NCBI GenBank assembly: GCA_028279755.1
Contig: JANQNB010000023.1
Location: 13,390-77,389, forward strand
From: Candidatus Nanoarchaeia archaeon
Lineage (GTDB): Archaea; Nanobdellota; Nanobdellia; Woesearchaeales; UBA525
Direction of reading: 5' to 3'
DNA: 64,000 nucleotides
Both the position numbers and the translations under genes were made by a program. Below, piece after piece: positions 1,520 through 53,809 of the stretch (its first letter is position 1; each line of letters opens with the position of its first letter). Below the pieces are notes generated by a model. The model searched no databases and had not been told where the DNA came from. It saw only the letters and a program-made list of their open reading frames with translations.

Positions 1520-1594
1520 GGGCCCGTAGCTCAGCTTGGATAGAGCACTTCCCTCCTAAGGAAGGGGTCGGGGGTTCGAATCCCTCCGGGTCCG
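1520..1594 (+). tRNA. tRNA-Arg (anticodon CCT), no intron, CCA not encoded
   Basis: Hand-folded 75-nt cloverleaf: GGGCCCG-TA-GCTC-AGCTTGGATA-GAGC-A-CTTCC-CTCCTAA-GGAAG-GGGTC-GGGGG-TTCGAAT-CCCTC-CGGGTCC-G. Confidence 0.9.
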
Positions 1595-3827: not shown

Positions 3828-3853
3828 CTATGGAAAAACATAAAATACATTCC

Positions 3854-5311
3854 ATGTTGCTACCCGGGGTGAGAGATGACTGGATTATTGCGGGCGAGTG
3901 GGATAACATCCCGATGTTTATCATCGACTCGTGGAATGGCATTTACAACAACACCGTAACAAAGGAACTGTGCGGCGACTTCCTGCGCGTTCTTCAGTTC
4001 ACCACAGGGAAGAATCATGAATACATGTACCTCTCCACGAGCAGCGAGCAGCATCTTGTCGAACTTCTTCGGGACATGTTCCGGAAAGACGCAAAAGCGT
4101 TCCATAAAATCATGGACAACTACTACAAACAACGCGAGAAGAACCTTGAGCGCATGCGAGAGATCGCAGCCCTTGACCTCCGCAAGCTCAGCAACAAAGA
4201 ACTGCTCGAGGTTTTCCGCGAGTCTCGCACGCTCGTCGGCTACAGCGGGGCGCATGATTGGTTCAGCTTCGGCGTTGATCGTCGTATTATTGATATTGTA
4301 GAGCTCGACGAATATTTCAAAGAGCATCCGGAAGAGAAAGATGCCATTCTGAATTTCACGAGTCCTGATGCCTTGCTGACGACTATCAAAGAGGAAATTG
4401 AGCTCCTCAGTCTTGCCAAGAAAGCGAAAGGTCTCAGTCGCGAAGGGATTAAGAAAGAATTCGAAAAGGAGCTCGCACAACTCAGTGAAGACTTCGGATG
4501 GCTGAGCGCGCTCATCTATTATCCTATCAAGAATGCGGCCGCTTATGCTGAAGAGATCCATGAACTGTCGCAGAAAGACACGCTTGATGAGGAACTCGAG
4601 GAGAAAGAGAACTACACCGCAAATATCAACAAGGCGCTCGCGGAATACATCAAAGAGAAGCAACCGCCGCAGAAGGTCATTGATAGCATCAACGCGATCA
4701 GAAAACTCAGTGAGATACGCGCTGTTGGTGAAATGGATGCCATCTATGGCTTCACTCGATTCCGCAACATTGACAAGGAGATCCAATCACGATTCAGTCT
4801 AAGCCAGGATCAGTATTATGCCTTGTATCTTGACGAAGTGGAAGCCTTGCTGAAAGGCCGAACGATCGAGATCGACTACGATCAGCGTTTTGAACTTGAT
4901 GGCACCTACCGTGACGATGATGGCAAGTTCCAGGAGGTCGAGAAGGCTACAGAACTCTTTGCGCGGCTCCAGAAGCAAAAACGACAAGGCGAAGAGCTCA
5001 AAGGCATGCCAGGTTGCCCAGGAACTGCTCGCGGAACTGTGCGGATTATTCGTGGTTCGAACGATATTGGCAGTTTCAAAGAAGGGGACATACTTGTCGC
5101 AAAAGCTACCTGTGTCGATTATGTCGTGATCATGAAGAAAGCGGGTGCGATCGTGACCGAATATGGCGGGATAACTTCTCACGCTGCAGTCGTCTCGCGC
5201 GAGCTGGGCGTTCCGAGCGTGATCGGCGTTCCCAACGTAACCGAGCTGCTGAAAGAAGGCGAACGCGTTGAGGTCGACGCAGACAAAGGCGCGATCACAC
5301 GAATAGAATAA
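3854..5311 (+). CDS. PEP-utilising-enzyme mobile (swivel His) domain protein, paralogue 1
   Basis: C-terminal CPGTARGTVRII...GDILVAKATCVDYVVIMKKAGAIVTEYGGITSHAAVVSRELGVPSVIG matches the phospho-His swivel domain of PpsA/PPDK. The N-terminal ~330 aa are helical and unassigned. An alternative start is ATG 3830 (ORF track), but that sits directly on the TATA box. Confidence 0.75.
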   Translation: MLLPGVRDDWIIAGEWDNIPMFIIDSWNGIYNNTVTKELCGDFLRVLQFTTGKNHEYMYLSTSSEQHLVELLRDMFRKDAKAFHKIMDNYYKQREKNLERMREIAALDLRKLSNKELLEVFRESRTLVGYSGAHDWFSFGVDRRIIDIVELDEYFKEHPEEKDAILNFTSPDALLTTIKEEIELLSLAKKAKGLSREGIKKEFEKELAQLSEDFGWLSALIYYPIKNAAAYAEEIHELSQKDTLDEELEEKENYTANINKALAEYIKEKQPPQKVIDSINAIRKLSEIRAVGEMDAIYGFTRFRNIDKEIQSRFSLSQDQYYALYLDEVEALLKGRTIEIDYDQRFELDGTYRDDDGKFQEVEKATELFARLQKQKRQGEELKGMPGCPGTARGTVRIIRGSNDIGSFKEGDILVAKATCVDYVVIMKKAGAIVTEYGGITSHAAVVSRELGVPSVIGVPNVTELLKEGERVEVDADKGAITRIE

Positions 5312-12149: not shown

Positions 12150-13514
12150 TTACTCAGCCCTGCGAGCATGGCCCTTTGTCGCGTCGAGCTTGATTGTATC
12201 GCCGTCTGCGAAGCTGACTGTTCCATTGAGCGTGCCAACGATGCATGGCTTCTTCAGCTCGCGTGAGATGATCGCAGCGTGGCACGTAACCCCGCCCTCG
12301 TCAGTGATGATGCCCACGCTTTTCTCGATCGCGGCGATATAGTCAGGCGTGGTCATAGTGGTGACGAGAATGCGACCAGGTTTCATCTTGTTCAGCTGTG
12401 CTTTGGTCTTGATCACACAAGCCGGAGCTTCGATTGTTCCCGGATAGCAGGACATGCCCCTCACTTCCTTGCTGGCTTTCGCAATCGGCAGGCCTTTCAA
12501 CAAGGATGCAGGAGGTGTTCCTGTATAGATGACCGTCTTGCCATTGACAAGATCATCGTTGTAATGCTCCATCCGTTCTTTGAGGTCGCTAGGGATCTGC
12601 TTGGCGTCGAGTTCCTCGATCGTGAAATACGGCATCTCCTCACTGCGCACGTCGAGCTGCTGTGCCATGGCTGCGAGCAAGGGCATGGAGCAATAGCCGA
12701 AGTGCGTGAGTGCGTCTTTCTTGTCAGTCCTGAGTGTAATGATGTCGCGGAGCACGGGAATCCAGGCTGACAACTCCTTGTCCACAGCATATTTCGCTGC
12801 TTCCTCTTCTGCTTTTGCCTCAAGCTCTTTAAGGTTTGCTTCAAACTCTGCAAGCGTTTTCTCTGGTTCCTTGATCTCCTTGATGCGCTGTCTGTAGAAC
12901 TCCTTTGTGAACGGCGTTCCCTTGAAATGGCGCATGTCTTGCCAGCAGAAACGCTCAGTGTGTTTTTCCAATCCTTCTTCTGAGAAATCGACCGCAAGCT
13001 TGTACAAGGACTCTTGTTCTGCAGTCGCCATGGTGTGCTTGGATGCCACTGCAAGCGTGGTGAAGGAGGTGTTGACATCCTTTGTGTGCTTCTTGAGCAG
13101 GGCCTTGATGCGTCGCTCGACTTCCTGGTCGATGCCATAGCCAAGCGGGTATATCTCAGCGAATACTGGATACGCAATGTCCAAGGCCTTGTGGAATTTC
13201 TCGAGTAACTCGGCATAAGAGAGCCCTGTCATCCTGTCTTGGCGCAGTTTTCTTGCATGTGCATAGAGCTTCTCAACATCTGCATAGAATTGCCTGACCA
13301 GGCCAGCGAAATATGTAACTGCTTGCTGTTTCAGGATTTCCGCAAAAGTCGCATGCTCGTCTTCATCAAGATAAATGCTGGCATCAACTGTCCGGCGATG
13401 GTGCACGCAGAAATCCAGATCCAACAGCTTGCGCATAGGCTCACCCCATGAGTAGTTCAGCAAACTGCTCCAGAGTGGTGTATGCTCTCGTACAACTCCT
13501 TTTTCCCACTTCAC
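12150..13514 (-). CDS. PEP-utilising mobile-domain protein, paralogue 2
   Basis: C-terminal CYPGTIEAPACVI...ILVTTMTTPDYIAAIEKSVGIITDEGGVTCHAAIISRELKKPCIVG. Proposed start is GTG 13514 (MKWEKG...), about 28 nt downstream of AAATATAAAA; ATG 13436 is the alternative. The remainder of the 774-aa track ORF is antisense to cdc48. Confidence 0.7.
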   Translation of the reverse strand: MKWEKGVVREHTPLWSSLLNYSWGEPMRKLLDLDFCVHHRRTVDASIYLDEDEHATFAEILKQQAVTYFAGLVRQFYADVEKLYAHARKLRQDRMTGLSYAELLEKFHKALDIAYPVFAEIYPLGYGIDQEVERRIKALLKKHTKDVNTSFTTLAVASKHTMATAEQESLYKLAVDFSEEGLEKHTERFCWQDMRHFKGTPFTKEFYRQRIKEIKEPEKTLAEFEANLKELEAKAEEEAAKYAVDKELSAWIPVLRDIITLRTDKKDALTHFGYCSMPLLAAMAQQLDVRSEEMPYFTIEELDAKQIPSDLKERMEHYNDDLVNGKTVIYTGTPPASLLKGLPIAKASKEVRGMSCYPGTIEAPACVIKTKAQLNKMKPGRILVTTMTTPDYIAAIEKSVGIITDEGGVTCHAAIISRELKKPCIVGTLNGTVSFADGDTIKLDATKGHARRAE

Positions 13515-13620
13515 CAGGTTTTGGAGAATGCTGTGCGTTTTATATTTTTCTTCGTCGAGAAGCCAGCGTAAACCTTTTAAACCGCCTGGAAATACGGCGC
13601 AGTAACGCTGGTGGTAAGAA

Positions 13621-15918
13621 ATGACTGTTCCTGAAGTGAAACTCAAGGTCGCGGAAGCGATCCAAGACGACGTCAACAAAGGTATCGTCAGGCTCGATTC
13701 CGGGTATATGCGCGAGCTTGACATCAGGCCCGGCAATATTGTCGAGATCAATGGCGAGCGCGGCACTGTCGCGATCGCTGATCGCTCCTTGCCTGGCGAC
13801 ATCGGCCTGAACATCATCCGCATGGACGGCCTGATCAGAAGGAATGCGCGCACGACGATCGGCGAACAGGTCAAGGTGAAGAAAGCCGAGGTGCACGAGG
13901 CGAAGAAAGTCACGATCGCACCTGCCAGAAGCGGCATCATGATCAGAGCGAATCCGCAGATCTTCAAGCGCGGCCTTCTGGGACGAGCAGTCCTGAAAGG
14001 CGACATTGTCGGGCTCGGCGGCACGAAGCGACGAAAGAGCGCGATGAGCGACAACCCCTTCTTCAGCGACATGGACCTCTTCTCAAGCATGATCAACGAA
14101 TCGTTCACCTTCGGGCTCGGCGACCTGAAGTTCGTGGTGGTCGATGTCCAGCCTGCGAAGAAAGCAGTGCTCGTGACTGAGCACACGGACGTGGTCTTCA
14201 ATCCTGAAGCAGTCGAGCTGAAAGACGAGGAGAGCGCGATCGACGTCTCGTACGAGGACATCGGCGGCCTGGACGAAGAGCTGGCGAAAGTGCGCGAGAT
14301 GGTCGAGCTGCCACTGAAGCATCCGGAGATCTTCGAACGCCTCGGGATAGAACCGCCGAAAGGCGTGCTCTTGCACGGCCCGCCAGGCACAGGAAAGACC
14401 CTGCTGGCGAAAGCTGTCGCGAACGAGACCCAGAGCAACTTCTTACTGATCAACGGCCCGGAAATCATGAGCAAGTATTACGGCCAGAGCGAAGAGAATT
14501 TGCGCAAGAAGTTCGAAGAAGCGGAGAAGAACGCGCCTTCCATCATCTTTATCGATGAGATCGACGCGATCGCGAGCAAGCGCGAGGAGAGCAAGGGTGA
14601 AGTCGAGCGGCGCGTAGTTGCGCAACTCTTGGCGATCATGGACGGCTTGAAATCGCGCGGCAAGGTCGTTGTCATCGCCGCGACAAACATCCCGAACCAA
14701 CTCGATCCTGCATTGCGGCGACCTGGACGGTTCGACCGCGAGATCGAAATAGGTGTGCCAGGCGTTGCCGGCAGGCTCAATATCCTTAAGATCCACACGC
14801 GCAACATGCCCTTGGACGACAAAGTCAACCTGAAACGATTGTCTGAAGTCACGCACGGCTTTGTGGGCGCCGACCTGTCCAGCCTTGCGAAAGAAGCGGC
14901 GATGATCGTGCTTCGGCGCGCGCTGCCTGACCTGAACCTGAAGGAAGACGAAGAGATCCCGAAGGAAGTCCTGGAGAAGCTCTTCATCAAGCAGCAGGAT
15001 TTCGTTGACGCGCTCAAGGTTGTGCGTCCGAGCGCGATGCGCGAAGTCCTCGTGCAGGTGCCTGACGTGAAATGGACTGACATCGGCGGCCTGGACGACG
15101 TGAAACAAGAACTTGTCGAAGCTGTCGAATGGCCATTGAAGCATAAGAGCGCGTTCACCCGCTTGGGTGTGAAACCGCCGAAAGGCGTGTTATTGTACGG
15201 GCCGCCAGGCACAGGCAAGACGCTCTTGGCAAAAGCTGTCGCGAACGAAAGCGAGGCAAACTTCATCCTGGTGAAAGGCCCAGAGATGCTGAGCAAATGG
15301 GTCGGCGAGAGCGAGAAGGCGGTGCGCAAGATCTTCGAGAAAGCAAGGCAGACAAGCCCAAGTATTATCTTCTTCGACGAGATTGATAGCATTGCGCCAC
15401 GCCGCGGGCTCGGCGGCAACGAGAACAACAATGTTGCAGAGCGTGTTGTCAATCAATTGCTGACTGAGATGGACGGCTTGCAGGAGCTGCAGGACATCGT
15501 CATTGTAGCAGCAACGAATCGGCCAGACATCATCGACACCGCCTTGCTGCGGCCTGGACGCTTCGATAGGATCATCCTCGCGCCGGTGCCGGACAAGCCG
15601 ACACGGAAGAAGATCTTCGACGTGCACACCAAGGACATGAAGCTGGGCAAGGACGTGAATATCAGCGCGATGGCTGAGCGAACAGACGGCTATGTCGGCG
15701 CTGACATCGAAGCGGTATGCAGGGAAGCAGCGATCATGGCGCTCCGGAAGGACATCAAGGCGAAGAATGTCGGCATGGACTTCTTCGAGGAAGCCCTGAA
15801 CAAGGTGCGCCCGAGCACCACGAAGGAGATCGAGGACAGCTATAAAGAGCTCGAGAGCCACTTCCGGACCGCGCAAGGCGCGCGCATGAAAGACGAGAAG
15901 CCGAGCTATTATGGATAA
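13621..15918 (+). CDS. cdc48: Cdc48/VCP-type AAA+ ATPase (two AAA domains)
   Basis: 765 aa with a double-psi-barrel-like N-domain and two [17 protein letters not shown] Walker A modules with DEID Walker B. Confidence 0.92.
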
Positions 15919-22391: not shown

Positions 22392-23228
22392 ATGGTAGGG
22401 CGTGTTGCATGCATACTCATTCTTCTCCTGCTTGCGGCCTGCGCCAGCGAGCCGCAACTCGAGCCGCTGAATGAGACAAACCAGACGGAAAACGTCACAG
22501 TGCCTGAGCCAGAGGCGCCGGTCGTTGAACCTGTCGACGAAGATCCTGAACAGCCGCCAGTACAGCCTCCTGAGAGAACGCCAATTGAGAAAGCGCCAGT
22601 GCCTGACTGGCTTGCCACGTTTGCGAACAAGGCGCCGAGCTACAGCTACATCATCCAGGATGAAACCCTTGGCGAGGTCATGATCAGGATGCAGCCTGGC
22701 GAGATCCAATACCGGCCGCTCGAGTACTTCTTCGAGGTCGAAGACGACGTGATCACGCTGTCGCGCATTGAGCTCGAAGATGCGGACGAGGACCTGGTCG
22801 AGGACATCGAACAAGGCGATGAAGTCCTCATCCATTACGCGTGGAAGAGCGGGAACAATCCGGTGAGCGGGTGCTACCTCCACAGCAGTCGGCGCTTCGC
22901 GTACGAGGTCGAGAACTGCATCGACGTCGCGGATGTGCAGCTCATCCACGAGAACCTTGCCTTCCCGGTCGAGCTCGTGCTCGCGCACGACTGGTACGAG
23001 CGCTATTTCGACGAACTCCCGTACAAGACCGAGCAAGGCTACGATCACGAGGATGATTATTCTGACCGGGATTATATCGCGACGCGCGCGTATTACGACA
23101 ACGGCGACGGCACCACGACCGTGCTGTACGTCGAGGAGTTCTTCAAGTTCATCCTGAAAGTGCAAGTGCTCAACAAGGACAATCTTGTTCTGGAAGATTA
23201 CGAGTACGGCGGCCTGACGCTGGGGTGA
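22392..23228 (+). CDS. putative lipoprotein with acidic/Pro-rich linker
   Basis: Start moved to MVGRVACILILLLLAACAS (lipobox). The 3' end overlaps the convergent LAGLIDADG-like ORF by 31 nt. Confidence 0.6.
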   Translation: MVGRVACILILLLLAACASEPQLEPLNETNQTENVTVPEPEAPVVEPVDEDPEQPPVQPPERTPIEKAPVPDWLATFANKAPSYSYIIQDETLGEVMIRMQPGEIQYRPLEYFFEVEDDVITLSRIELEDADEDLVEDIEQGDEVLIHYAWKSGNNPVSGCYLHSSRRFAYEVENCIDVADVQLIHENLAFPVELVLAHDWYERYFDELPYKTEQGYDHEDDYSDRDYIATRAYYDNGDGTTTVLYVEEFFKFILKVQVLNKDNLVLEDYEYGGLTLG

Positions 23229-23803
23229 AGATGTTCTTGAATCAGATCGATCACTCTTCTTAGAAGCACATCACTTACATAAATATGGCAGATTCCTGTT
23301 GGAGATGTCGCGTTTGATTTTTCAAACAATCTAATTTGTTCTGGTGACACATTTAGCTTCGCTCTCCAGTATTGTTCAACTTTTTCAGAAGGATCTTTTA
23401 CGAAAATCTGAACTGCACCCACAGGCAGATCAATCCTCTTGAGCAACCACTGACGCTCAAGTTCGTCGAGAACTGCTCGCATGTCTTTCGCATTCGAATT
23501 AGTAATAGTCACCCGACGATAGTTCGATTTTCCTAGTTTATTCGCACCTTCACCCTCGAGAAATCCCAAAACCCAAAAGAAAGATGAACTAAGTTCAATT
23601 CGACTAGGAAATAATCGCTTCACTAGTCGAGGTACAGCGGAGTTCAAGACGCGATAAAAAACTAGAATCTCCTTCTCAGAAACTTGCTCAACTTCCAGGG
23701 AATATTCCGCACTAGTTGTCCAAGAGGGATATGTGAGTTTACCTTCAACAACTGGTTGCAGTTCTAGCCACTGTCCGAGTTCCGCACAAATTTCCGATTT
23801 CAT
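23198..23803 (-). CDS. LAGLIDADG homing-endonuclease-like protein, single motif, free-standing
   Basis: 201 aa from MKSEICAELG. FFWVLGFLEGEGANKLGKSNYRRVTITNSNAKDMRAVLDEL fits a LAGLIDADG-type helix plus following strands. Visibly AT-richer than its neighbours, with its own CTTATAAG box upstream. The track's 315-aa version runs through the tRNA. Confidence 0.5.
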   Translation of the reverse strand: MKSEICAELGQWLELQPVVEGKLTYPSWTTSAEYSLEVEQVSEKEILVFYRVLNSAVPRLVKRLFPSRIELSSSFFWVLGFLEGEGANKLGKSNYRRVTITNSNAKDMRAVLDELERQWLLKRIDLPVGAVQIFVKDPSEKVEQYWRAKLNVSPEQIRLFEKSNATSPTGICHIYVSDVLLRRVIDLIQEHLHPSVRPPYS

Positions 23804-23874
23804 ACTAAAACCTTGAAATCGTGAAATTTGAAGGAAGGAGGGCTTATAAGCGCTGCGTACGGTTGACCAGTGCT

Positions 23875-23919
23875 TAAAAAAGAAAAACGGAGGACTTCCG
23901 AAAAATCCGGAAGCCCTCC
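23875..23919 (-). terminator. 12-bp hairpin plus T-runs directly after the tRNA
   Basis: Reverse strand reads GGAGGGCTTCCG-GATTTTT-CGGAAGTCCTCC, followed by GTTTTTCTTTTTT. Confidence 0.6.
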
Positions 23920-23923
23920 TGAG

Positions 23924-24082
23924 TAGCGGGGGGAGGATTTGAATTCGGCGGGGACCAGCACTCGACTGTATCCCCTCCTCCGACCTCCGGGTCTCTCCTG
24001 TTCCGAAGAACGGTATGAGCCCGACGGGCACTCCTAGTTGGGCGTTCTGCCAAACGAGGCAGGAACTCTGCCCTACCCCGCT
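23924..24082 (-). tRNA. initiator tRNA-Met (CAT) carrying three insertions/introns (D-arm ~30 nt, canonical 37/38 21 nt, T-arm 33 nt)
   Basis: Reverse strand reads AGCGGGG-TA-GGGC-[40 nt incl. D-loop]-GCCC-G-TCGGG-CTCATA-[21 nt]-A-CCCGG-AGGTC-GGAGG-[33 nt]-TTCAAAT-CCTCC-CCCCGCT-A. It has A1:U72, three G:C pairs at the base of the anticodon stem and a CAU anticodon. Confidence 0.85.
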
Positions 24083-24104
24083 GGGTACGGCGAACTCGAG
24101 GCGC

Positions 24105-24112
24105 TTTATAAA
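24105..24112 (-). promoter_or_regulatory. TATA box of the tRNA-iMet gene
   Basis: TTTATAAA ends 22 nt upstream of tRNA position 1. Confidence 0.6.
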
Positions 24113-24244
24113 GCTTTGGCGTTGTCGCACCACTGCGGCAGCCATCCGCTATCACTCCCTACGTGTATCAGATTCAGTAAGTCTACAAGTGCAATACAGA
24201 GGCTGTCAAGGCAGTGGTGCTACTGTCTGCAATGAGAAAGCGTG

Positions 24245-24358
24245 ATCAGTCCCACCAGCATTCGATGGCGTCGTCAGCTGGCGTGCGCTGGCCAAGATCC
24301 TCCACACGCGGGTCCCGATACAATCGCATCCTCTCTGGACTCTTTGCTGACATCTTCA
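24245..24358 (-). CDS. small protein A of the ECWWD family (37 aa, or 35 aa from the second ATG)
   Basis: MKMSAKSPERMRLYRDPRVEDLGQRTPADDAIECWWD. GGAGG lies 8 nt before the second ATG (24352), and TATGTATAAATA sits upstream. Confidence 0.6.
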
Positions 24359-24441
24359 TCCCCTCCAGTGTATGCTAAGGTATGAAGGTATTTATACATA
24401 TGCAGCCGAAAACGTATCAAAGAGGTCGCATTTCGCCGTTT

Positions 24442-24570
24442 TCAGTCCCACCAGCACTCGACACGGTCGTCAGCATCTGTGCGCTTGTCCAGCTCGACCA
24501 GTCGTTCCTCGTAGGGCTTCGGCTTGTATTTCTGTTTTTTCGGCCTTTTCACCAGCTTGGGCTTTTTCAT
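24442..24570 (-). CDS. small protein B of the ECWWD family (42 aa)
   Basis: MKKPKLVKRPKKQKYKPKPYEERLVELDKRTDADDRVECWWD, with AGGTG upstream. Confidence 0.6.
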   Translation of the reverse strand: MKKPKLVKRPKKQKYKPKPYEERLVELDKRTDADDRVECWWD

Positions 24571-24674
24571 AGGAGCACACCTACTAGCTCCTGTTGGCGT
24601 AAGCAGGGAGAAGTAAAACAACTATTTATTGATAGTGACCGAGAATTGGGCAAAACAGGCTGTAATGGCCGGAA

Positions 24675-24767
24675 TCAGTCCCACCAGCACTCGACACGGT
24701 CGTCAGCAGGGCCTTTAGGACCGAGCTCTGTGACACGTGGATCGTTGGTATTGGACTTTGAATTCAT
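24675..24767 (-). CDS. small protein C of the ECWWD family (30 aa)
   Basis: MNSKSNTNDPRVTELGPKGPADDRVECWWD. Compared with copy A it carries multiple synonymous differences in the conserved tail (GAC/GAT, CCG/CCA, GTG/GTC, CTT/CTC, GGC/GGT, GAA/GAG). Confidence 0.6.
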   Translation of the reverse strand: MNSKSNTNDPRVTELGPKGPADDRVECWWD

Positions 24768-24869
24768 GTGTTTGCCCCCAATTATATTAACTACTAAGAA
24801 GTGGTAAAACTAATATATAAAATTTTCGATTGTGCTTTTAAACAGCCTGTACTGGCAGAATTCAACAGA

Positions 24870-25718
24870 TCACGCTGGATCGATGTGCACAAAGGCCTTG
24901 TTCACTTCTGGCAAGCGCTCGATATCATGCTGCACGCTCATGGCAATCGTGTGTGCGACGCCCGAAGCGACGCGGGAATTGACCAGGATGTGGATCTCGA
25001 CATGGACATAACTGCCGACATAATGGCTCCGAATCTTATGGATGCCGCGCACGCCGCGGACAGCGCTGGCCGCATGCCGGATCTTGTGATCCAGGGATTT
25101 CGGCGGAGCAGCACCCAAGAGATAGTCGACATTCTTCCTGCCAAGCTTATACGCTTCGTTGAACAGGAAGATGCTGATGATCAGGGCTGCGACGTCATCC
25201 AGCCAGGGAAAGCCGGTCGAGGCGAAGACCAGGCCTGCAAGGGCTGTGCACGTGATCAGCACGTCGTTCCTGCTGTCGTCGCTGGTCGCGAACAAGGCCG
25301 GGCTGCGCGCCTTCAAGGCAGCGACATGGGCCTCGTGGCTGAGCAGGATCTTCGCGACGATCGCTATGAGCAGGCTCGCCACGATCAGCCAGTCGAGATG
25401 GTGCGGGCCGCTGCCGCCAATGAGGTTGAAAGCCGCGCTCCGTAGGAATTCGAAGGCGGCGATGCCCATCAGGATCGCGATGACAAACGCCACCATGGGC
25501 TCTGCCCGGGCGTGGCCGAACGGATGCCCTTTGTCCGCTTTCTTATGGCTCTCCCTGACGCTCCAATGCACGCCGAAGCTGTAGAGCATGTCCAACAGAG
25601 AATTTGTCGCGTCTGCGAGCACAGCGAGAGAGTTTGCTGCGATGCCAGCGAAGAGTTTCAGGATGAAGAGCGTGCCATTAATGACGATCGAAAGAACCGT
25701 GACTCGCTTCGCGTGCAC
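24870..25718 (-). CDS. cation diffusion facilitator (CDF) family metal efflux transporter
   Basis: LFAGIAANSLAVLADATNSLLD ... GHPFGHARAEP; six TM helices plus a C-terminal cytoplasmic domain. Confidence 0.8.
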   Translation of the reverse strand: MHAKRVTVLSIVINGTLFILKLFAGIAANSLAVLADATNSLLDMLYSFGVHWSVRESHKKADKGHPFGHARAEPMVAFVIAILMGIAAFEFLRSAAFNLIGGSGPHHLDWLIVASLLIAIVAKILLSHEAHVAALKARSPALFATSDDSRNDVLITCTALAGLVFASTGFPWLDDVAALIISIFLFNEAYKLGRKNVDYLLGAAPPKSLDHKIRHAASAVRGVRGIHKIRSHYVGSYVHVEIHILVNSRVASGVAHTIAMSVQHDIERLPEVNKAFVHIDPA

Positions 25719-32797: not shown

Positions 32798-33928
32798 ATG
32801 CACAAGCCTGACTACAACGGCGGCTCGATCCTGAATCTCATGGCCAGCATCATCGCCGCGCGCGGCGGGAAGCGCGAGTACAAAGAGCTTTCCTCGCTGC
32901 GCGCCAAAGAGCTCAAGGATGCTGACAACCTGGTCTTGCTGGTCATTGACGGCATGGGCTATGAATGGTTGCGCAAGCATGGCAAAGGCAGCTTTCTCGC
33001 TTCGCAGGTGCGCGCGCAGCTGACTTCAGTGTTTCCTGCGACAACGTCAGCGGCAATGACTGCAATCTACACCGGCGTGCCGGCGAAGAAGCACGGGCTC
33101 ACGTGCTGGCACATGCTCTTCAAGGAATGCGGCATGGTGCTCGCCGCCCTGCCGCCGCACACCCGGAGCTGGCAGCTCGACCTTGAGCATATGAAACCCC
33201 GGCAAGTGGTGCCGGTAACGAGCGTCTTCGAGAAGATCGACATGCCGAGCTTCCAGATCCAGCCGAAAGAATTCAAGGATTCCGCCTATAACAAGCGCGT
33301 GAGCGCTGGCGCAAAGATCCTGACATACACGAAGTTGGGCGGAATGTTCCGCAAGATCAAGAAAGCGATGAAACAGCCAGGCAAGAAATTCGTGCTCGCG
33401 TACTGGCCAGAACTCGATCTCATCCTGCACCATGCGGGCACGAAGAGCGCGGAAGCGCAGCAGCATTTCAAGGTGCTCGACAAGAAGCTCGCGCGCTTTG
33501 TGAAGAAAGTGAACAACGCCACACTAGTCATCACTGCAGACCATGGTTTGCACGATGTGTCGCGCAATGTCTGGGTGCACAAACATCCGGTGATGGAAGA
33601 AGCGATGTCATTGCCGCTGTGCGGGGAAGGGCGATTAGCGTATGCGTACGTCCATCCTGAGAAGGCGAAGAAATTCGAGAGCTATGTCAAGCGGAAACTG
33701 AAGCACGCGTGCACGATCCATAAGAGCAAAGACCTGCTTTCCTGGTACGGGCCTGGCAAGGCGCATCCGCATCTGCAGCATCGCATCGGGGATTATGTTC
33801 TCATCGCCAAGCCCGGCTGGGCGATCAAGGATCGTGTCTGGGGCGAAGGCGGCTCGATGAGCACCGCACGACACGCAGGCGTTTCAAAAGAAGAGATGCA
33901 CGTGCCGCTGATCGTCATTGAGAAATGA
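32798..33928 (+). CDS. alkaline-phosphatase superfamily protein (nucleotide pyrophosphatase / PglZ-like)
   Basis: 376 aa from MHKPDYNGG. LLVIDGMGYEWL, SVFPATTSAAMTAIYTG and VITADHG motifs. The upstream part of the 661-aa track ORF is antisense to the MCM-like gene. Confidence 0.7.
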   Translation: MHKPDYNGGSILNLMASIIAARGGKREYKELSSLRAKELKDADNLVLLVIDGMGYEWLRKHGKGSFLASQVRAQLTSVFPATTSAAMTAIYTGVPAKKHGLTCWHMLFKECGMVLAALPPHTRSWQLDLEHMKPRQVVPVTSVFEKIDMPSFQIQPKEFKDSAYNKRVSAGAKILTYTKLGGMFRKIKKAMKQPGKKFVLAYWPELDLILHHAGTKSAEAQQHFKVLDKKLARFVKKVNNATLVITADHGLHDVSRNVWVHKHPVMEEAMSLPLCGEGRLAYAYVHPEKAKKFESYVKRKLKHACTIHKSKDLLSWYGPGKAHPHLQHRIGDYVLIAKPGWAIKDRVWGEGGSMSTARHAGVSKEEMHVPLIVIEK

Positions 33929-35354
33929 TTTTGACTATGCCTTTTTCTGCGTCGACTTCGATAAGATCACCGTCCTTGAAGATGCGTGTGGCGTCTTTTG
34001 TGCCAATCACACAGGGCGTACTCATCTCCCTGGCAACAATCGCGGCGTGACAGCTCAAGCCGCCTTCGTCAGTGACCATCGCAGCAGCTTTCTCTATAGC
34101 AGGAACATAATCAGGGGTTGTCATGCCGGTAATGAGAATGTCGCCCTGCTTGACCTTATCGATCTCTTTTGCTGAGTTAAGTACTCTTGCAACTCCTGTG
34201 ACTTTTCCTCTATGCGCGACTTGACCTTTTACCACATTCTCATCCAGCAAGTCACCTTCAACAATCTTCAGGATATTCTCATCCGGACCATCAAGATCAT
34301 ACAACTGCATGTCCTTGAGTATGAAACCGTACCATTTCCTACGCTTATTGATTCGTTCTGTGTCGAGCTGCTCACCCTCGAGTCCTTTTTCAATCTCCCA
34401 ATAGTACGCTGCCGATACACTTTGCAAACCGAGCTTCTTCTGAATCGCTTCGAAAAGATCGTTCAATGCATAGGCTGATTCGATCAATGCTTCAAGGCGC
34501 CGAAACCTGACAAGTGGCAATTGCTGCGCATCGACAAAGAGCCTGAGCAAGCGCTCGCTGAATTTGTATTTCGATGTCAGCGCTGCTTGCCTCTCCTTGA
34601 TTGCCGCTGTTTCTTCTTGCATTGCTTGCAATTCCTTTTCAGGATCTTTCATGGCTTCAATCTCTGCTGTGAAGGTTTCAAACGACACAGGCTCAAACCA
34701 GATACCGTGATCTTCAAGCCATTTGTACTGGTCATACACTTTCCTGATCGCTGACTCTGGCGCCTTGTCGACTGCGAGTTGCAGCATGGCTGCTCTCTTC
34801 AATTGCATGGTGGATGGCTCTGTCGACGAGATCATGCTTGTCATGGTGTCGAGAAAAACAGAGAAATCCTTTTTCGGGTCGATGTGCTTGGCGAGTTCAG
34901 CCTCAATCTCTGCACGCATCCATTCCTCAGGACCCAATGGAGGGAAGAGGTGGCTCATGAGCTTGATCGCTCGTTGCGTGTATTCCTGGAATCCTTGCAG
35001 CAGGTCTGTGAAGTCTTGCCCTTTTGCCCAGGAGACGATGTCTTCGCTATCTTGCAGTGCTTTGGCAAAATACTTGCTGAGAAACCTATCGTCCTTTTCT
35101 GCCTCAGCGATCATCGTCTGCTGGAGACGCGCGAATTCGTCCTCAGAATGGTAAACATCGTAATTCAGCAAAACGACTGTTGGCATTCTTGAATCAAAAC
35201 CGAGTTCTGGATTAATGATAGCATCGCCGACTCGCAAGTAGGAGTTCATGAGTGGGCTGTTCGCCCTTTTGACCACCTTATACCAATTGACGCCAGTGAT
35301 GTCAGGTAGTGTATCTGCTTGTACAACATTGTGTTCTTTGTCGAGCATTTTCAT
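33915..35354 (-). CDS. PEP-utilising mobile-domain protein, paralogue 3
   Basis: Start MKMLDKEHN overlaps the stop of paralogue 4 (ATGA at 35351-35354). C-terminal GDILITGMTTPDYVPAIEKAAAMVTDEGGLSCHAAIVAREMSTPCVIG. Confidence 0.75.
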   Translation of the reverse strand: MKMLDKEHNVVQADTLPDITGVNWYKVVKRANSPLMNSYLRVGDAIINPELGFDSRMPTVVLLNYDVYHSEDEFARLQQTMIAEAEKDDRFLSKYFAKALQDSEDIVSWAKGQDFTDLLQGFQEYTQRAIKLMSHLFPPLGPEEWMRAEIEAELAKHIDPKKDFSVFLDTMTSMISSTEPSTMQLKRAAMLQLAVDKAPESAIRKVYDQYKWLEDHGIWFEPVSFETFTAEIEAMKDPEKELQAMQEETAAIKERQAALTSKYKFSERLLRLFVDAQQLPLVRFRRLEALIESAYALNDLFEAIQKKLGLQSVSAAYYWEIEKGLEGEQLDTERINKRRKWYGFILKDMQLYDLDGPDENILKIVEGDLLDENVVKGQVAHRGKVTGVARVLNSAKEIDKVKQGDILITGMTTPDYVPAIEKAAAMVTDEGGLSCHAAIVAREMSTPCVIGTKDATRIFKDGDLIEVDAEKGIVKIISQ

Positions 35355-36415
35355 TCGATCTTCCTCACAACACCTTTCTCGGCGTCCACTTCGACGATGT
35401 CTCCATCGTTCAGGTCTTTTGTCGCGCGTTGCGTGCCGATGACACACGGCTTCTTGAGTTCGCGCGCGACGATCGCCGCATGACATAAGACGCCGCCGCC
35501 GTCAGTGACAAAAGCTGCGCTTTTTTCGATTAAAGGAACGTACTCTGGACGGGTCATTCCAGCAACAAGGATATCTCCTGGCTTGAAGTCTTTCGCTTTG
35601 TCAGGATCATGCACGATCTGTACACGGCCTTTCGCAGTTCCGGGATATGCTGTCTGACCTTCAATCTCATCGCTTTGTTTGCCGAGCACGAGTTCTTCTG
35701 CTTTTGTGACATCATCTCCAAGCAGGATGTGCATTTTGCCTTCGTGGAAATAGAATGCGCTTTGTTTGTTGCGTTGTTCGAGCATTGCTCTGTCTGGCAG
35801 TGTTCCATCTTGGAGGTATTGCTCAAATTCGTCTTTGGTCATTGCCCGGATAAGTTTTGCTGGGTAGCCAGTTTTTTTCTCGTGAAAAGCTGACAGCTGC
35901 ATGGTGAATTCCAGGAATTTGGTGAACAATGGCTCTGCATACACTCGAGCGTCTTCGAATTGTGGCAAATATTTTTTGAGAAGCTCGGCCGGAAGGTAGT
36001 CGACCAGCACCTTGACTTGGATGTGGTAGGGATAGTACTCGAGAACATTGTTGTGCAATCGCTGGAACTCTTCTAAGCTCACATCTTTACTCATGAGCTC
36101 GTCAAAAACCGCCATAAACTCATCAGTTGTCTTCTTCAGCAGCATGCATAGTTTGTCCACAAGTGCAGGGTCTTTCGCGATCTGCGCGATGAGTTCTTCG
36201 CTGAATCGTTTCTTGTCGGCGATGGGCTGGAAGCCTGCGCCCGTGCCATCATGCCAGGTGATGATGGTCTGGTGAACATAGCGCTTGATGTTGTCGGCAA
36301 AGGGCATCCGTGAATAGAATTCGCCAAAACGCGTGAGATCCACTGGCGGCCATCTGCCACTGAATTGGCTTTCCCACTTCGTAGCCGCGAGCGCTTGCTG
36401 AATCGCTGAGTCCAT
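35351..36415 (-). CDS. PEP-utilising mobile-domain protein, paralogue 4
   Basis: C-terminal GDILVAGMTRPEYVPLIEKSAAFVTDGGGVLCHAAIVARELKKPCVIG. Confidence 0.75.
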   Translation of the reverse strand: MDSAIQQALAATKWESQFSGRWPPVDLTRFGEFYSRMPFADNIKRYVHQTIITWHDGTGAGFQPIADKKRFSEELIAQIAKDPALVDKLCMLLKKTTDEFMAVFDELMSKDVSLEEFQRLHNNVLEYYPYHIQVKVLVDYLPAELLKKYLPQFEDARVYAEPLFTKFLEFTMQLSAFHEKKTGYPAKLIRAMTKDEFEQYLQDGTLPDRAMLEQRNKQSAFYFHEGKMHILLGDDVTKAEELVLGKQSDEIEGQTAYPGTAKGRVQIVHDPDKAKDFKPGDILVAGMTRPEYVPLIEKSAAFVTDGGGVLCHAAIVARELKKPCVIGTQRATKDLNDGDIVEVDAEKGVVRKIE

Positions 36416-49657: not shown

Positions 49658-50296
49658 ATGGAAATAGTTCAAAAACGACCAACTGTGGTCTATGACATTC
49701 TCGGGCCAATGTATCACTATGATGCAGCAGGATGGCCTGAGGACAAAGGGGCGGTAGTACCGCTTATTGAGCTCATCAAGAGACATAATTTTGCAGCAGC
49801 GACGCTACGAGAAGAATCAGAAGTGGAAGAACGAATGCTTGCTTCTGGGCTTACAACACCATTAATCACGCCAGGATTCGTTGAAAGCGCGATATACGTG
49901 CAGCGAGCAGGCGGGCTACCGGTTATCGTTACTGCAGGTACGCCAGGCACTGCAGCCATCACCCTCGAAGCAGCTGCGAGGGATTATCAAGAACGAACCG
50001 GAGAGCGTGTCGACATGGCCAGGTTATTCCCTGATTCGTGTGTCCATAGCACCCTTGACATCGGAAGCAAAGCAGAGCCAGCCACGTGGATGCGAGCAGT
50101 GTGGGAGAACCACGGGATCGTGCCTGTCGTCGCCACATATGAAGATTCTCTGAAGAACCTTGAAGCAGCCACTGCAGGACTACAAGGGCATGGTTTCCAT
50201 GTTGTCCACGACGGCCCTATTCAGCGCGTTGCGCCAAATCTTTATAAGGGCAGCATGCGCGCCCTGCAACCAGTGCTTGAAGAGCTGTGCAGGTGA
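49658..50296 (+). CDS. hypothetical protein
   Basis: 212-aa ORF with GGGGGAG upstream and no confident motif. Confidence 0.5.
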   Translation: MEIVQKRPTVVYDILGPMYHYDAAGWPEDKGAVVPLIELIKRHNFAAATLREESEVEERMLASGLTTPLITPGFVESAIYVQRAGGLPVIVTAGTPGTAAITLEAAARDYQERTGERVDMARLFPDSCVHSTLDIGSKAEPATWMRAVWENHGIVPVVATYEDSLKNLEAATAGLQGHGFHVVHDGPIQRVAPNLYKGSMRALQPVLEELCR

Positions 50297-50300
50297 CCAT

Positions 50301-51629
50301 ATGCCGCGACTTGATCACGAGAAATACGATTTCTTGTGGAAAGTCGATAATATCTCATTTCTTTTTACCAGTTATTGGCTTCATGGTCTCTATCGTAAGA
50401 TCGACTGCTTCATCGCGTGCAAAGGAAGCGATTGGAGCTTCTACATAGAGAAAGAAGAGCGGGCACGGCTGTCAAAACAAGGCTTGAAGCTTTTCGAGGA
50501 AGAGTTGAAGCCCTTCAAGAAAGAGATGGGTGTTGTCCTTGCAGAGGCCGACAAGCTCTTTCCGGAAATCGAGGCATGCGATCCGAGGACCTTCTCTGAT
50601 GAGCGGCTGGCCGACGCGTTCAAACAGCTCGTCGTGTTCGCTCAGCGTCTCTGGGAGCTCTTCTTCCACACTGAATATTTCAACCACGACCTGGTACAAG
50701 AAAAAGCTGAAACGCTGGGGATTATAGGTAACGAATACCTCACGAGTAGTCCGAAAGAAGTCATTCAGTCAAAAGAGCGCTATGAGCGCTGCAAACTCTC
50801 ACTTCACTCAACTCCTGAAGCGATCAAGAAGCACGCGAAGAAATACAGTTTCATCAAGTACAACGAGTCAGGACCAACCCTCACGCCACAGATGCTCACA
50901 GAAGAACTGGCAACTATCACCAGTCCTGAAAAGATCATCGATGAAATCGATGCGAAGCACGACGCTGTCATCGCAAAACGCAAGGAGCATCCCCTCGCCA
51001 CCGCGATTCGCGAGATGGCAGAGCTCAAGTTCATCGTCCGGAGCTATATCAATAAGCTGTGGTTCGGCAACAACCTTATGAAGAGGTATCTCGACGAGAT
51101 TCAGAAGCGTACCGGCATCCAGAATTTTGACAACTATGACTGGCACGAAGTGCTCCGGGCACTGAAAGGGGAAAAAGTCGACGTCCCAAAACGCGACGTG
51201 TATGTCTGGGGAAAATTCAATGATTGGGAACCAGTCATTGGCGAGGAAGCGCGGCCGTTGGTCGATCAAATCATGAGCATCAAGCCCGGACAGACGACCA
51301 TGACCGGCATGATCGGCAACCGAGGTACGTACACTGGCACCGTCAAGATCATTCCTTTCGACGTCGAAGCAGACCTGCCAAGCCTGATTGCAGAGATGAA
51401 GCAAGGCCAAGTTCTTGTCACTGGTTCAACCGGCCCGGAGATGATCAAAGCATGCCACAAAGCAGGCGCGATCGTGACAGAAGAAGGGGGGATCTGCAGC
51501 CATGCCGCGATCGTCTCGCGCGAGCTTGGGATCCCATGCGTCATCAGGACGGAAATCGCGACACGCATTCTCAAAGACGGTGATCGTGTCGAAGTCGACG
51601 CAGAACGCGGCATCGTGCGGAAGCTCTAG
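50301..51629 (+). CDS. PEP-utilising mobile-domain protein, paralogue 5
   Basis: Start MPRLDHEKYDFLWK, with AGGTGA 5 nt upstream. C-terminal GQVLVTGSTGPEMIKACHKAGAIVTEEGGICSHAAIVSRELGIPCVIR. Confidence 0.75.
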   Translation: MPRLDHEKYDFLWKVDNISFLFTSYWLHGLYRKIDCFIACKGSDWSFYIEKEERARLSKQGLKLFEEELKPFKKEMGVVLAEADKLFPEIEACDPRTFSDERLADAFKQLVVFAQRLWELFFHTEYFNHDLVQEKAETLGIIGNEYLTSSPKEVIQSKERYERCKLSLHSTPEAIKKHAKKYSFIKYNESGPTLTPQMLTEELATITSPEKIIDEIDAKHDAVIAKRKEHPLATAIREMAELKFIVRSYINKLWFGNNLMKRYLDEIQKRTGIQNFDNYDWHEVLRALKGEKVDVPKRDVYVWGKFNDWEPVIGEEARPLVDQIMSIKPGQTTMTGMIGNRGTYTGTVKIIPFDVEADLPSLIAEMKQGQVLVTGSTGPEMIKACHKAGAIVTEEGGICSHAAIVSRELGIPCVIRTEIATRILKDGDRVEVDAERGIVRKL

Positions 51630-51999: not shown

Positions 52000-52851
52000 T
52001 CACCGCAACACGTGATAGAATGCTTCGAAGATGGGTGTATCGCTCGTGACTGAAACAAAGGCACAGTCAGTTTCCTCGCACAGGCTTTTCAGCTTCATGA
52101 TGTGATGCATGAGCTTGTTCTGATAGTCGCTCTTCATCCGCCTGCTGATAAACGTGCGCATCTTGTCGTGCGTCTCCGCGTCCTCGAGCAGGACGTCGCC
52201 AGAGAGCGCAAGTTCCCGCTCCGCAGGATCCAGCACCTGGATGACGTAGACCTCGCTGCGCCGGTAGCGGTGGAGGATCTCCTCGACCTCGTCGAGGTTG
52301 TAGAGGAAATCGCTGATCAGCACGATCAACGAACGGCCGCTGATATTCTTCTTGTACTCGTCCATCGCGTGCTTGAACCCGGACTCGCCATCAGCCTTCA
52401 GCTTGCTCATGATGTCCAGGATGTGGATCAATTGGTTCGTGCCTTTCTTCGGCCGCAGCCTTTTGACTTTCTCGCTGAACGTGGCAAAGGTGAATTTCTC
52501 GTTGCGCTTGACTGCCATGTATGAGAAACCAAGGCCGAGCATGGCCGCGTATTCGAATTTCTTCATGTGCTTGCCGTAGTTCATCGAGCCAGAGCTGTCG
52601 ACAAGGATGTGCACGACGAGATTGCGCTCTTCCTCGAAACGGCGCACGAAGAATTTATCTGTGCGAGCGAAGATGTTCCAGTCGATGTGCCGGAAGTCGT
52701 CGCCTGGCACGTAGGCCTTGTAATCCTGGAAGATCAGGCCCTGGCCCTGCGCCGCTGCCTGGTGCTCGCCATGCAGGTCAGCATGCACCTTCTTCTTCAG
52801 GATCAGCTGCAAGCGATCCAGCGATTTCAGGAAATCAAGGCTGATTGCCAT
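52000..52851 (-). CDS. DUF58 (vWA-like) protein of the MoxR operon
   Basis: DYKAYVPGDDFRHIDWNIFARTDKFFVRRFEEERN ... ILVDSSGSM. Confidence 0.8.
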   Translation of the reverse strand: MAISLDFLKSLDRLQLILKKKVHADLHGEHQAAAQGQGLIFQDYKAYVPGDDFRHIDWNIFARTDKFFVRRFEEERNLVVHILVDSSGSMNYGKHMKKFEYAAMLGLGFSYMAVKRNEKFTFATFSEKVKRLRPKKGTNQLIHILDIMSKLKADGESGFKHAMDEYKKNISGRSLIVLISDFLYNLDEVEEILHRYRRSEVYVIQVLDPAERELALSGDVLLEDAETHDKMRTFISRRMKSDYQNKLMHHIMKLKSLCEETDCAFVSVTSDTPIFEAFYHVLR

Positions 52852-52852
52852 C

Positions 52853-53800
52853 CTACTTCAGCAACTCTCCGACCACGTCGTCTGTCGTCTTGCCTTCGCG
52901 CTCTGCCTTGAACGAGAGCACGATCCTGTGGCGCAGCACCGGGTATGCCATTTCCTCGATGTCCTTGAGGCTGACATACTTGCGCCCGTCGATGAGCGCA
53001 CGCGCCTTTGCCGCCATAATGACACCAAGGCTTGCTCGCGGACTCGCGCCGTACTCGATCAGGTCTGGCACGCTGCGCGTCTTCGCCACGATCTCCACGG
53101 CCCGCCGCTTGATGTCGTTCGCGATCGGCACCTGCCGTGTCAGCTTCTGCAGCAATTTGAGCGAATCCCCGCTCAAGAGCGTCTTCAATTTTGCAACTGC
53201 CTGCGCGCGCGTATAGCGTTCCACGATCTCGAGCTCGTCGTCCATCTTCGGATAGTCGATCAGGATCTTCAGCAGAAACCTGTCAGTCTGCGCTTCCGGC
53301 AACGGATACGTCCCTTCCTGGTCGATAGGGTTCTGCGTCGCGAGCACGAAGAACGGCAGGTCCAGGGGGAAGGTCTGGTTCCCGACTGTGACTTGCTTCT
53401 CCTGCATGCTTTCCAAGAGCGCGGCCTGCGTCTTCGGCGTGGCACGGTTGATCTCATCCATCAGGATGATGTTCGCGAAGATCGGGCCTTTCTGGAACTT
53501 GAAGATCTTCTTCCCGTCCTTCTCCTCGATCACGTAGGTGCCGATGATGTCGCTGGGCATTAAATCCGGCGTTCCCTGGATTCGGGCGAACTTCAGGCCC
53601 ATTACTTCAGCGATGGCCTTGATCATGCTCGTCTTTCCCAGGCCAGGATAGCTTTCCAATAATGCGTTCGCATCGCACAGGATCGCGACGAGAATCTGCT
53701 GCATCACGTCTTCCTGACCGATGATCTTCTTCGCGACTTCGCTCGTCACATTCGTGAAGGTCGCCTTGAGTTTCTCTATGTTTTTGACCGTGTCTGCCAT
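52853..53800 (-). CDS. MoxR-family AAA+ ATPase
   Basis: IIGQEDVMQQILVAILCDANALLESYPGLGKT...IQGTPDLMPSDIIGT...ILMDEINRATPKTQAALLE. Confidence 0.88.
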   Translation of the reverse strand: MADTVKNIEKLKATFTNVTSEVAKKIIGQEDVMQQILVAILCDANALLESYPGLGKTSMIKAIAEVMGLKFARIQGTPDLMPSDIIGTYVIEEKDGKKIFKFQKGPIFANIILMDEINRATPKTQAALLESMQEKQVTVGNQTFPLDLPFFVLATQNPIDQEGTYPLPEAQTDRFLLKILIDYPKMDDELEIVERYTRAQAVAKLKTLLSGDSLKLLQKLTRQVPIANDIKRRAVEIVAKTRSVPDLIEYGASPRASLGVIMAAKARALIDGRKYVSLKDIEEMAYPVLRHRIVLSFKAEREGKTTDDVVGELLK

Positions 53801-53809
53801 ATGGTCACC

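Follow-up and report, generated by a model that had tools for sequence, protein, structure and literature searches.

The stretch of DNA analysed here, hereafter called the window, comprises 64,000 nt of contig JANQNB010000023.1 from an assembly labelled Candidatus Nanoarchaeia archaeon (GCA_028279755.1). On its minus strand, at 24082..23924, lies a 159-nt precursor gene of initiator tRNA-Met, which is divided into four exons by three insertions. Initiator tRNA is essential and its gene is normally present in a single copy. An earlier description made from the letters alone (the sequence-only reading) had parsed the reverse strand of this interval into 18 segments. The parse matches the sequence exactly, with segment lengths along the precursor of 7-2-4-40-4-1-5-6-21-1-5-5-5-33-7-5-7-1.

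All parts of the gene are encoded on the minus strand. Exon 1 (AGCGGGGTAGGGCAG, 24068..24082) supplies tRNA positions 1-15, that is, the 5′ strand of the acceptor stem, U8, A9, the 5′ strand of the D-stem, A14 and G15. It is followed by intron 1 (AGTTCCTGCCTCGTTTGGCAGAACGCCCAA, 24038..24067), which is 30 nt long and interrupts the D-loop at position 15/16. Positions 16-37 are contributed by exon 2 (CTAGGAGTGCCCGTCGGGCTCATA, 24014..24037) and comprise the remaining D-loop, the 3′ strand of the D-stem, the 5′ strand of the anticodon stem and the CAU loop. Intron 2 (CCGTTCTTCGGAACAGGAGAG, 23993..24013) measures 21 nt and occupies the canonical position 37/38. Exon 3 (ACCCGGAGGTCGGAGG, 23977..23992) then provides positions 38-53 with the 3′ strand of the anticodon stem, the variable loop AGGUC and the 5′ strand of the T-stem, and intron 3 (AGGGGATACAGTCGAGTGCTGGTCCCCGCCGAA, 23944..23976) adds 33 nt at position 53/54. 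The T-loop, the 3′ strands of the T-stem and the acceptor stem and the discriminator A73 are found in exon 4 (TTCAAATCCTCCCCCCGCTA, 23924..23943), which does not encode the CCA end.

In silico joining of the four exons yielded a sequence of 75 nt (AGCGGGGUAGGGCAGCUAGGAGUGCCCGUCGGGCUCAUAACCCGGAGGUCGGAGGUUCAAAUCCUCCCCCCGCUA). ARAGORN called this product as tRNA-Met(CAT), and the cloverleaf is both the minimum free energy (MFE) structure and the centroid fold. The archaeal initiator identity elements that had been listed for the locus are all present: the pair A1:U72, three G:C pairs (29:41, 30:40 and 31:39) closing the anticodon stem, the CAU anticodon and the AGGUC variable loop. The anticodon arm (...UCGGG-CUCAUAA-CCCGG...) has a 5-bp stem and a 7-nt loop in which CAU is flanked by U33 and A37; the spliced tRNA furthermore carries U8, A14, G18G19, G53, U54-U55-C56, A58 and C61. 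In a pattern scan, the product showed 73/75 identity with intron-less initiator genes of several Thermococcus genomes (among the matches listed). Only A9 and U27 differ, and the D-loop AGCUAGGAGU that results from the junction predicted by the bulge-helix-bulge (BHB) motif described below is the Thermococcus D-loop. The 20-nt pattern of the 3′ exon occurs once in the 64-kb window compared with 0.00 expected occurrences; taken together with the Thermococcus identity, this places the tRNA match far beyond chance. The same 20 nt also match many bacterial tRNA-fMet genes with the same 3′ end (scan of genome contigs, among the matches listed). The 341 nt around the locus were reproduced with 100% identity in the independent Logan assembly of run SRR20820740. 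The proposal of an initiator tRNA-Met with insertions in the D-loop, at 37/38 and at 53/54 was thus borne out, and the approximately 30 nt that were to be removed from the D-region could be refined to exactly 30 nt (24067..24038).

Standard tools do not recognize the gene in its interrupted form. At the unspliced locus no tRNA was called by ARAGORN, either in default or in intron mode, the latter being a check that had been suggested, and Rfam reported nothing at the gathering threshold or at E≤10. When introns 2 and 3 alone were removed, ARAGORN miscalled the sequence as a tRNA-Ser(act) with an intron. The only tRNA found by this program in the window is an intron-less tRNA-Arg(CCU) at 1520..1594, and a search of the whole window for hidden tRNAs, using T-arm and acceptor complementarity, likewise returned only this gene. 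No other intact initiator anticodon arm is present within the 64 kb. A metagenome scan for the exact exons of the window together with introns 2 and 3 gave no match. Two other architectures were considered and rejected. A split or permuted tRNA gene is ruled out by the occurrence of the four exons in order, on one strand and within 159 nt, and group I or group II self-splicing introns by insertion lengths of 21-33 nt and the lack of any Rfam intron-family match.

The gene is flanked by transcription signals. A TATA box (TTTATAAA, 24105..24112, minus strand) ends 22 nt 5′ of the start of the mature tRNA, as had been stated for this box, and is preceded by a purine-rich AAAG (24117..24114, minus strand) that resembles a B recognition element (BRE). 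The same AAAG-TTTATAAA arrangement is found upstream of the ortholog in the closest relative (L122, see below), and TATA boxes are located upstream of the genes of other relatives. On the 3′ side, a terminator-like element (23873..23919, minus strand) consists of the hairpin GGAGGGCTTCCGG-ATT-TTTCGGAAGTCCTCC (23919..23889) and a following GTTTTTCTTTTTT, in agreement with the hairpin and T-runs noted before. A GC-rich hairpin with a T-run also follows the tRNA in relatives.

An open reading frame (ORF) of 315 aa (23198..24145, minus strand) covers the whole tRNA gene and has been called as a protein both by NCBI and in the Logan assembly. Its homologues (n = 41) have lengths of 177-213 aa and align to about 57% of the ORF, at the C-terminal end only. 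We therefore conclude that the true gene, as delimited by homologue coverage and family alignment, extends from 23803 to 23198 on the minus strand and encodes 201 aa, the first ~114 codons being an artefact of reading on through the tRNA gene. The sequence-only reading had dismissed the entire ORF as spurious, and this is correct for the N-terminal part over the tRNA but not for the C-terminal 201 aa, which represent a real conserved gene. The downstream protein belongs to a conserved family of approximately 180-210 aa from Woesearchaeota-type archaea, which is characterized by the motifs LGFLKGEG, GKSNYRRFTITN and GVCHxYxSDVLLRRVID. A Pfam search of the family returned no family match. An AlphaFold2 (AF2) model reached a predicted local distance difference test (pLDDT) score of 89, and a fold search of the PDB with this model gave no match at E≤0.001. 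A LAGLIDADG homing endonuclease, prompted by the sequence LGFLEGEG, was considered but is not supported: of 29 members, only 2 matched LAGLIDADG_3 (E=0.068), and no PDB fold match was obtained. In the window and at 15 other loci, members of the family are encoded directly 3′ of the initiator tRNA gene; the family was not found beside intron-less initiators of Woesearchaeota, Micrarchaeota or Nanoarchaeota.

The region ahead of the downstream gene has features of its own. The window carries a conserved motif, ACTGG(A/T)CA, at 23864-23872 (minus strand), and in 14 of 23 related loci the motif is likewise found upstream of this gene. It sits at a fixed distance of ~21-23 nt 5′ of the downstream gene's TATA box, forms a direct repeat in some cases and may be bound by a transcription factor. 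In L123, L125, L132 and L154, the start codon of the downstream gene is preceded by a long conserved 5′ leader.

We scanned every pair of 5′ and 3′ sites in the 159-nt precursor for a BHB motif with a 4-bp central helix, two 3-nt bulges, an outer and an inner helix. The central helix was sought as a pairing of two tetranucleotides, one of exon sequence that stops 2 nt short of the 5′ site and one of intron sequence that stops 2 nt short of the 3′ site. Only three strict motifs were present in the precursor, and one of them corresponds exactly to the 30-nt D-loop intron AGTTCC...CGCCCAA. This intron 1 forms a strict hBHBh′ motif, in which all four central pairs (GGGC:GCCC) are made, the outer helix has 2 bp and the inner helix has 4 bp plus 4 more past a bulged C. 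This motif is also favoured by the thermodynamic ensemble without constraints (pairing probability of the central helix, 0.68) and is present in the centroid fold. The D-arm boundary of the intron had been regarded as ambiguous, with two GCCC tracts competing for the D-stem. The strict motif settles it at 15/16: within the insertion, GCCC serves as the intron strand of the BHB central helix, base-paired to GGGC of the D-stem, and the second GCCC is the true 3′ strand of the D-stem. An enumeration of D-region deletions with ARAGORN was of no help, as many D-arm variants were accepted without discrimination, and the BHB scan and the comparison with Thermococcus were used instead.

Introns 2 and 3 follow relaxed versions of the motif. 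Intron 2 is hBH-like, with the anticodon stem as a 5-bp outer helix, a 3-nt 3′ bulge and three of four central pairs (A35.G mismatch); its internal hairpin GUUC-UUCG-GAAC is out of register. Intron 3 is of the HBh′ type. Three of its four central positions pair (C48-G49-G50 to CCG) and the remaining one is an A.G mismatch; the 5′ bulge measures 3 nt and the inner helix 6 bp, and the outer helix is missing. All three introns hence fall under the BHB definition in its strict or its accepted relaxed form, two of the three under the relaxed definition only. The earlier statement that the insertions do not form textbook BHB motifs is correct for introns 2 and 3 and incorrect for intron 1. Since none of the three motifs needs another intron to be removed first, all could coexist in the precursor.

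DNA was fetched around homologues of the downstream protein, and 15 further loci with an initiator tRNA directly upstream were obtained in this way. All 15 initiator genes are interrupted, by one to six introns each, and in silico splicing turns every one of them into a 75-nt tRNA-Met(CAT); ARAGORN saw none of the unspliced genes that were tested. Counting the window, an intron at 15/16 is present in 14 of the 16 genes (13/15 relatives), at 37/38 in eight (7/15 relatives) and at 29/30 in seven. Positions 7/8, 53/54 and 59/60 are occupied in two genes each, and 13/14, 20a/21, 43/44 and 45/46 in one gene each. In L122, the closest relative, the exons are 74/75 identical to those of the window and the downstream protein is 55-60% identical. 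Its third intron is situated at 29/30 as opposed to 53/54 in the window. The sequence of exon 1 is unchanged in L122 and L129. Intron 1 is homologous between the window and L122, and the two copies differ only in the apical part of the hairpin. The inner helix of the 15/16 intron covaries among more distant relatives, where its sequence is different and its pairing is kept. The ...AGAGAG 3′ end of intron 2 is shared with L129, L141 and L146. An intron at 53/54 occurs in the window and in L138, where it has 34 nt, the same GCCGAA 3′ end and the same 3/0/6 geometry including the A.G mismatch, combined with an unrelated inner-helix sequence.

The 16 genes together contain 38 distinct introns, and the central helix is complete (4/4) in 29 and has three of four pairs in eight of them, compared with a 4/4 central helix in 2.8% of randomly placed intervals of the same length. 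Pairing at the individual positions of the central helix amounts to 0.76-1.0 versus 0.35-0.40 in the random control, and the BHB signal was lost when the 3′ site was slid by 1-3 nt. An alignment of 12 spliced or intron-less initiators showed standard pairs in 99.6% of the cloverleaf cells and seven pairs with double (compensatory) changes. The observed covariation score was not reached in any of 500 shuffles, and slid controls were 45-60% paired. A1:U72 and the three G:C columns are invariant in all 12 sequences.

Some of the related loci are unusual in other respects. The L138 gene (JGI Ga0180009_10049955), which lies about 350-130 nt upstream of the protein match at 1103, appears to hold six BHB introns (7/8, 20a/21, 29/30, 37/38, 43/44 and 53/54), with 4/4 central pairs in four and 3/4 in two; its 217-nt precursor yields a 75-nt tRNA-Met in silico. 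At L123 (GCA_964640255.1), the gene at 4471-4661 contains four BHB introns (7/8, 15/16, 45/46 and 59/60), all with 4/4 central helices. This four-intron gene was found in three sources, the others being L124 (ENA) and L135 (JGI Ga0114922_10006813), the latter an independent assembly. Immediately 5′ of the L123 initiator gene is a partial duplicate, AGCGGGGTTTTTAT. A second interrupted tRNA gene, which ARAGORN misses, is arranged back-to-back with the initiator gene on the minus strand at ~4226-4352; judging by its anticodon loop TTGCTAA, it is probably a Ser-GCU gene with a non-canonical intron. The initiators of L103 and L119 (Candidatus Micrarchaeota) and of L044 (Candidatus Baldrarchaeota) are interrupted as well (precursors of 154, 104 and 138 nt). 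Unlike in the Woesearchaeota pattern, their insertions are found near 9/10, at 7/8, or within or beside the anticodon arm.

The affiliation of the host was examined through proteins encoded in the window. Archaeal proteins in this set include GatE, Cdc48, MCM, TruD, TrmB, HerA and an Hjc-like nuclease. The best named GatE matches (≤71% identity) and nearly all further named ones carry the label 'Candidatus Woesearchaeota archaeon', the others being one 'Nanoarchaeota archaeon' and one 'archaeon D22'. Homologues of the downstream protein bear, where named, the same labels or plain 'archaeon'. Those window proteins that were looked up and found in the protein collection are all singletons at 90% identity. 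From the names of the GatE matches and other homologues and from the 90% singletons we conclude that the host belongs to a sparsely sampled lineage of the Woesearchaeota (DPANN).

Judged from its sequence, the locus is very probably a functional Woesearchaeota initiator tRNA-Met gene with three BHB-type, protein-spliced introns at 15/16, 37/38 and 53/54. The exon content, the intron positions, the BHB geometry, the conservation and covariation among relatives and the flanking promoter and terminator are direct observations; we infer from them that the gene is transcribed, that the introns are actually cleaved and that EndA accepts the relaxed motifs. Transcription would start ~22-25 nt downstream of the BRE/TATA element and stop at the T-run past the 3′ hairpin. 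Each intron would pair with the exon just upstream of its own 5′ splice site to form the BHB central helix, the exon partner being the 5′ strand of the D-stem for intron 1, anticodon-loop nucleotides 32-35 for intron 2, and C48 plus the 5′ strand of the T-stem for intron 3. EndA would then cut in the two 3-nt bulges and an RtcB-type ligase would join the exons, while RNase P and RNase Z would trim the ends and CCA would be added post-transcriptionally. It is reasonable to assume that a broad-specificity endonuclease is needed for the relaxed motifs, and the EndA of the host presumably does not have the (alpha-beta)2 form with the crenarchaea-specific loop (CSL).

Several observations weigh against this interpretation. 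Introns 2 and 3 form only relaxed motifs with three of four central pairs, the ensemble probability of their BHB registers is ≤0.01, and these registers lie +5.5 kcal/mol (intron 2) and +2.3 kcal/mol (intron 3) above the MFE. No tRNA_int_endo-type Pfam match, indicative of EndA, was present among the ~60 ORFs of the window. In addition, the intron boundaries in the relatives were set by choosing the best BHB among shifts that leave the same mature sequence, which slightly favours the BHB statistics.

The lack of a strict BHB motif in two of the three insertions and the failure of standard tRNA finders would also fit a decaying or inactivated initiator copy, that is, a pseudogene, with a functional intron-less copy elsewhere in the genome. 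However, a single initiator tRNA gene is usual in archaeal genomes, and every insertion is in BHB geometry. The exons have kept 73/75 identity to Thermococcus and 74/75 to L122 although the neighbouring proteins are only ~55-60% identical. Moreover, the gene has been kept in place in 15 relatives, where the stems show compensatory changes and promoters and terminators of their own are present. The conservation among relatives, the BHB statistics, the covariation and the flanking signals exclude chance and speak strongly against a pseudogene, which we regard as very unlikely. A different possibility is that the gene is functional but at least one insertion, most plausibly that at 53/54, is retained as an expansion or is removed by another, non-EndA activity. 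Intron 3 lends itself to this explanation by its missing outer helix and its central mismatch, and by an ensemble that favours the T-stem with a stacked intron hairpin (0.62 for the T-stem versus 0.01 for the BHB central helix). An insertion of 33 nt between G53 and U54, however, would abolish the T-loop together with its D-loop contact. The HBh′ arrangement matches a known class of relaxed EndA substrates (PMC4090602), and L138 shows the same geometry and GCCGAA end with an unrelated inner-helix sequence. We consider such a fate of the insertion highly improbable.

The 315-aa ORF could also be taken at face value, as a genuine protein. Its N-terminal ~115 residues would then be encoded here, and the tRNA-like pieces would be coincidental. 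The frame is indeed open from 24145 to 23198 and is called in both annotations. On the other hand, all 41 homologues match the C-terminal end alone, the corresponding upstream DNA of the relatives is a tRNA gene without a consistent reading frame, and the terminator hairpin, the ACTGG(A/T)CA motif and a TATA-like box would all be located inside the supposed N-terminal coding region. As the tRNA match itself is far beyond chance, this explanation has practically no chance of being correct. A functional initiator gene with three BHB-type introns remains the best explanation. A more far-reaching version would hold that, in one Woesearchaeota clade, an ancient 15/16 intron has become obligatory, that the initiator gene is a hot spot of BHB-intron gain and that the downstream ~190-aa protein is a dedicated partner in processing or regulation of the precursor; we find this extension rather doubtful.

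Three further features of the window were recorded. Between the tRNA promoter and a cation-efflux gene, an interval of ~725 nt (24146-24870) contains no Pfam-recognisable ORF and has no Rfam match; the matching interval in L122 is filled by an 861-aa ATP-grasp gene. Five ORFs with long unannotated N-terminal regions (3830-5311, 12150-14474, 33915-35486, 35351-36415 and 50160-51629, two of which overlap) have the C-terminal phosphoenolpyruvate (PEP)-utilizers mobile domain PF00391 as their sole Pfam match, and this set looks like an unusual paralogue expansion. On the minus strand at 52000-59492 there is a cluster of genes for MoxR (AAA_3), DUF58, DUF7502, VWA and BatA/DUF7407/DUF7408/DUF7406 proteins. 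The same BatA-DUF740x and VWA pair adjoins the homologue of the downstream protein at the Woesearchaeota locus L125.

These findings have consequences for annotation. A genome record that lacks the initiator tRNA and instead contains a false 315-aa protein misstates both the completeness of the genome and its proteome, and the failure of ARAGORN and the Rfam tRNA model on multi-intron tRNA genes of DPANN archaea is as Kaneta et al. (2018) anticipated. The 16 orthologs with their 38 distinct introns at 11 positions offer a small natural collection in which to study how introns are gained and lost and to define what a DPANN EndA has to accept. In the literature searched (subscription-only papers outside), we found no description of the window gene or of a clade-wide 15/16 intron in initiators, and no archaeal tRNA gene in which more than three introns are confirmed. 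Should the genes with four and six introns in the relatives be confirmed, the documented maximum for an archaeal tRNA, now three introns, would double.

A comparable architecture is well known from tRNA genes of the Thermoproteales, which have relaxed BHB motifs and up to three introns per gene (PMC4033280, PMC8450103). They include the multi-intron tRNAs of Pyrobaculum, Thermofilum and Caldivirga that both of these papers cite from Sugahara et al. (2007/2008). Like the gene described here, they possess co-linear exons and short introns at canonical and non-canonical positions with BHB or relaxed hBH/HBh′ motifs, and they are missed by ordinary finders. In contrast to these crenarchaeal genes, the present one resides in a DPANN host, the 15/16 intron of the initiator is conserved throughout the clade, and relatives exceed three introns.

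Closer to the host, tRNA genes were predicted in a Woesearchaeota genome and other DPANN genomes by Kaneta et al. (2018; PMC5829648). That study linked the L3-loop alpha4 EndAs of DPANN archaea to increased disruption of tRNA genes and stated that gaps in the tRNA sets indicate disrupted genes still to be identified. Another broad-specificity EndA of DPANN archaea is the epsilon2 enzyme from ARMAN-2 (PMC3239211, PMC3488258), and enzymes of broad specificity are known to accept relaxed motifs of the hBH and HBh′ kinds (PMC4090602). The disrupted tRNAs of ARMAN-2 and of the L3-loop lineages thus belong to the same superphylum as our host, and there too multiple or non-canonical introns are tied to EndA variants.

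Three introns in an initiator gene have a precedent in the Asgard archaea. Atabeyarchaeia-2 has a three-intron iMet(CAT) with a 191-nt precursor (PMC11291895, Supplementary Data 4), and in three Asgard genomes (Atabeyarchaeia, Freyarchaeia) 92-95% of the tRNA genes bear introns (PMC11291895). This gene and that of the window both carry three introns outside the Thermoproteales in precursors of similar size (191 versus 159 nt). They differ in that Atabeyarchaeia-2 belongs to another phylum and that the only other tRNA gene of the window is intron-less.

Split and permuted tRNAs, known from Nanoarchaeum equitans, Caldivirga maquilingensis and, as a permuted tRNA-iMet, from Thermofilum pendens (PMC4090602, PMC3218864), share the logic of processing by BHB and EndA with the window gene, and initiator tRNA is among those affected. 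Unlike these, the gene described here needs neither trans-splicing nor a circular intermediate, because its four exons are contiguous, ordered and located on one strand within 159 nt. The rarity that the sequence-only reading had ascribed to the locus was therefore overstated, given a DPANN host with reported tRNA disruption and a three-intron iMet already tabulated for Asgard archaea. We conclude that a three-intron initiator tRNA in DPANN archaea is a fresh case of a known phenomenon and less exceptional than first assumed.

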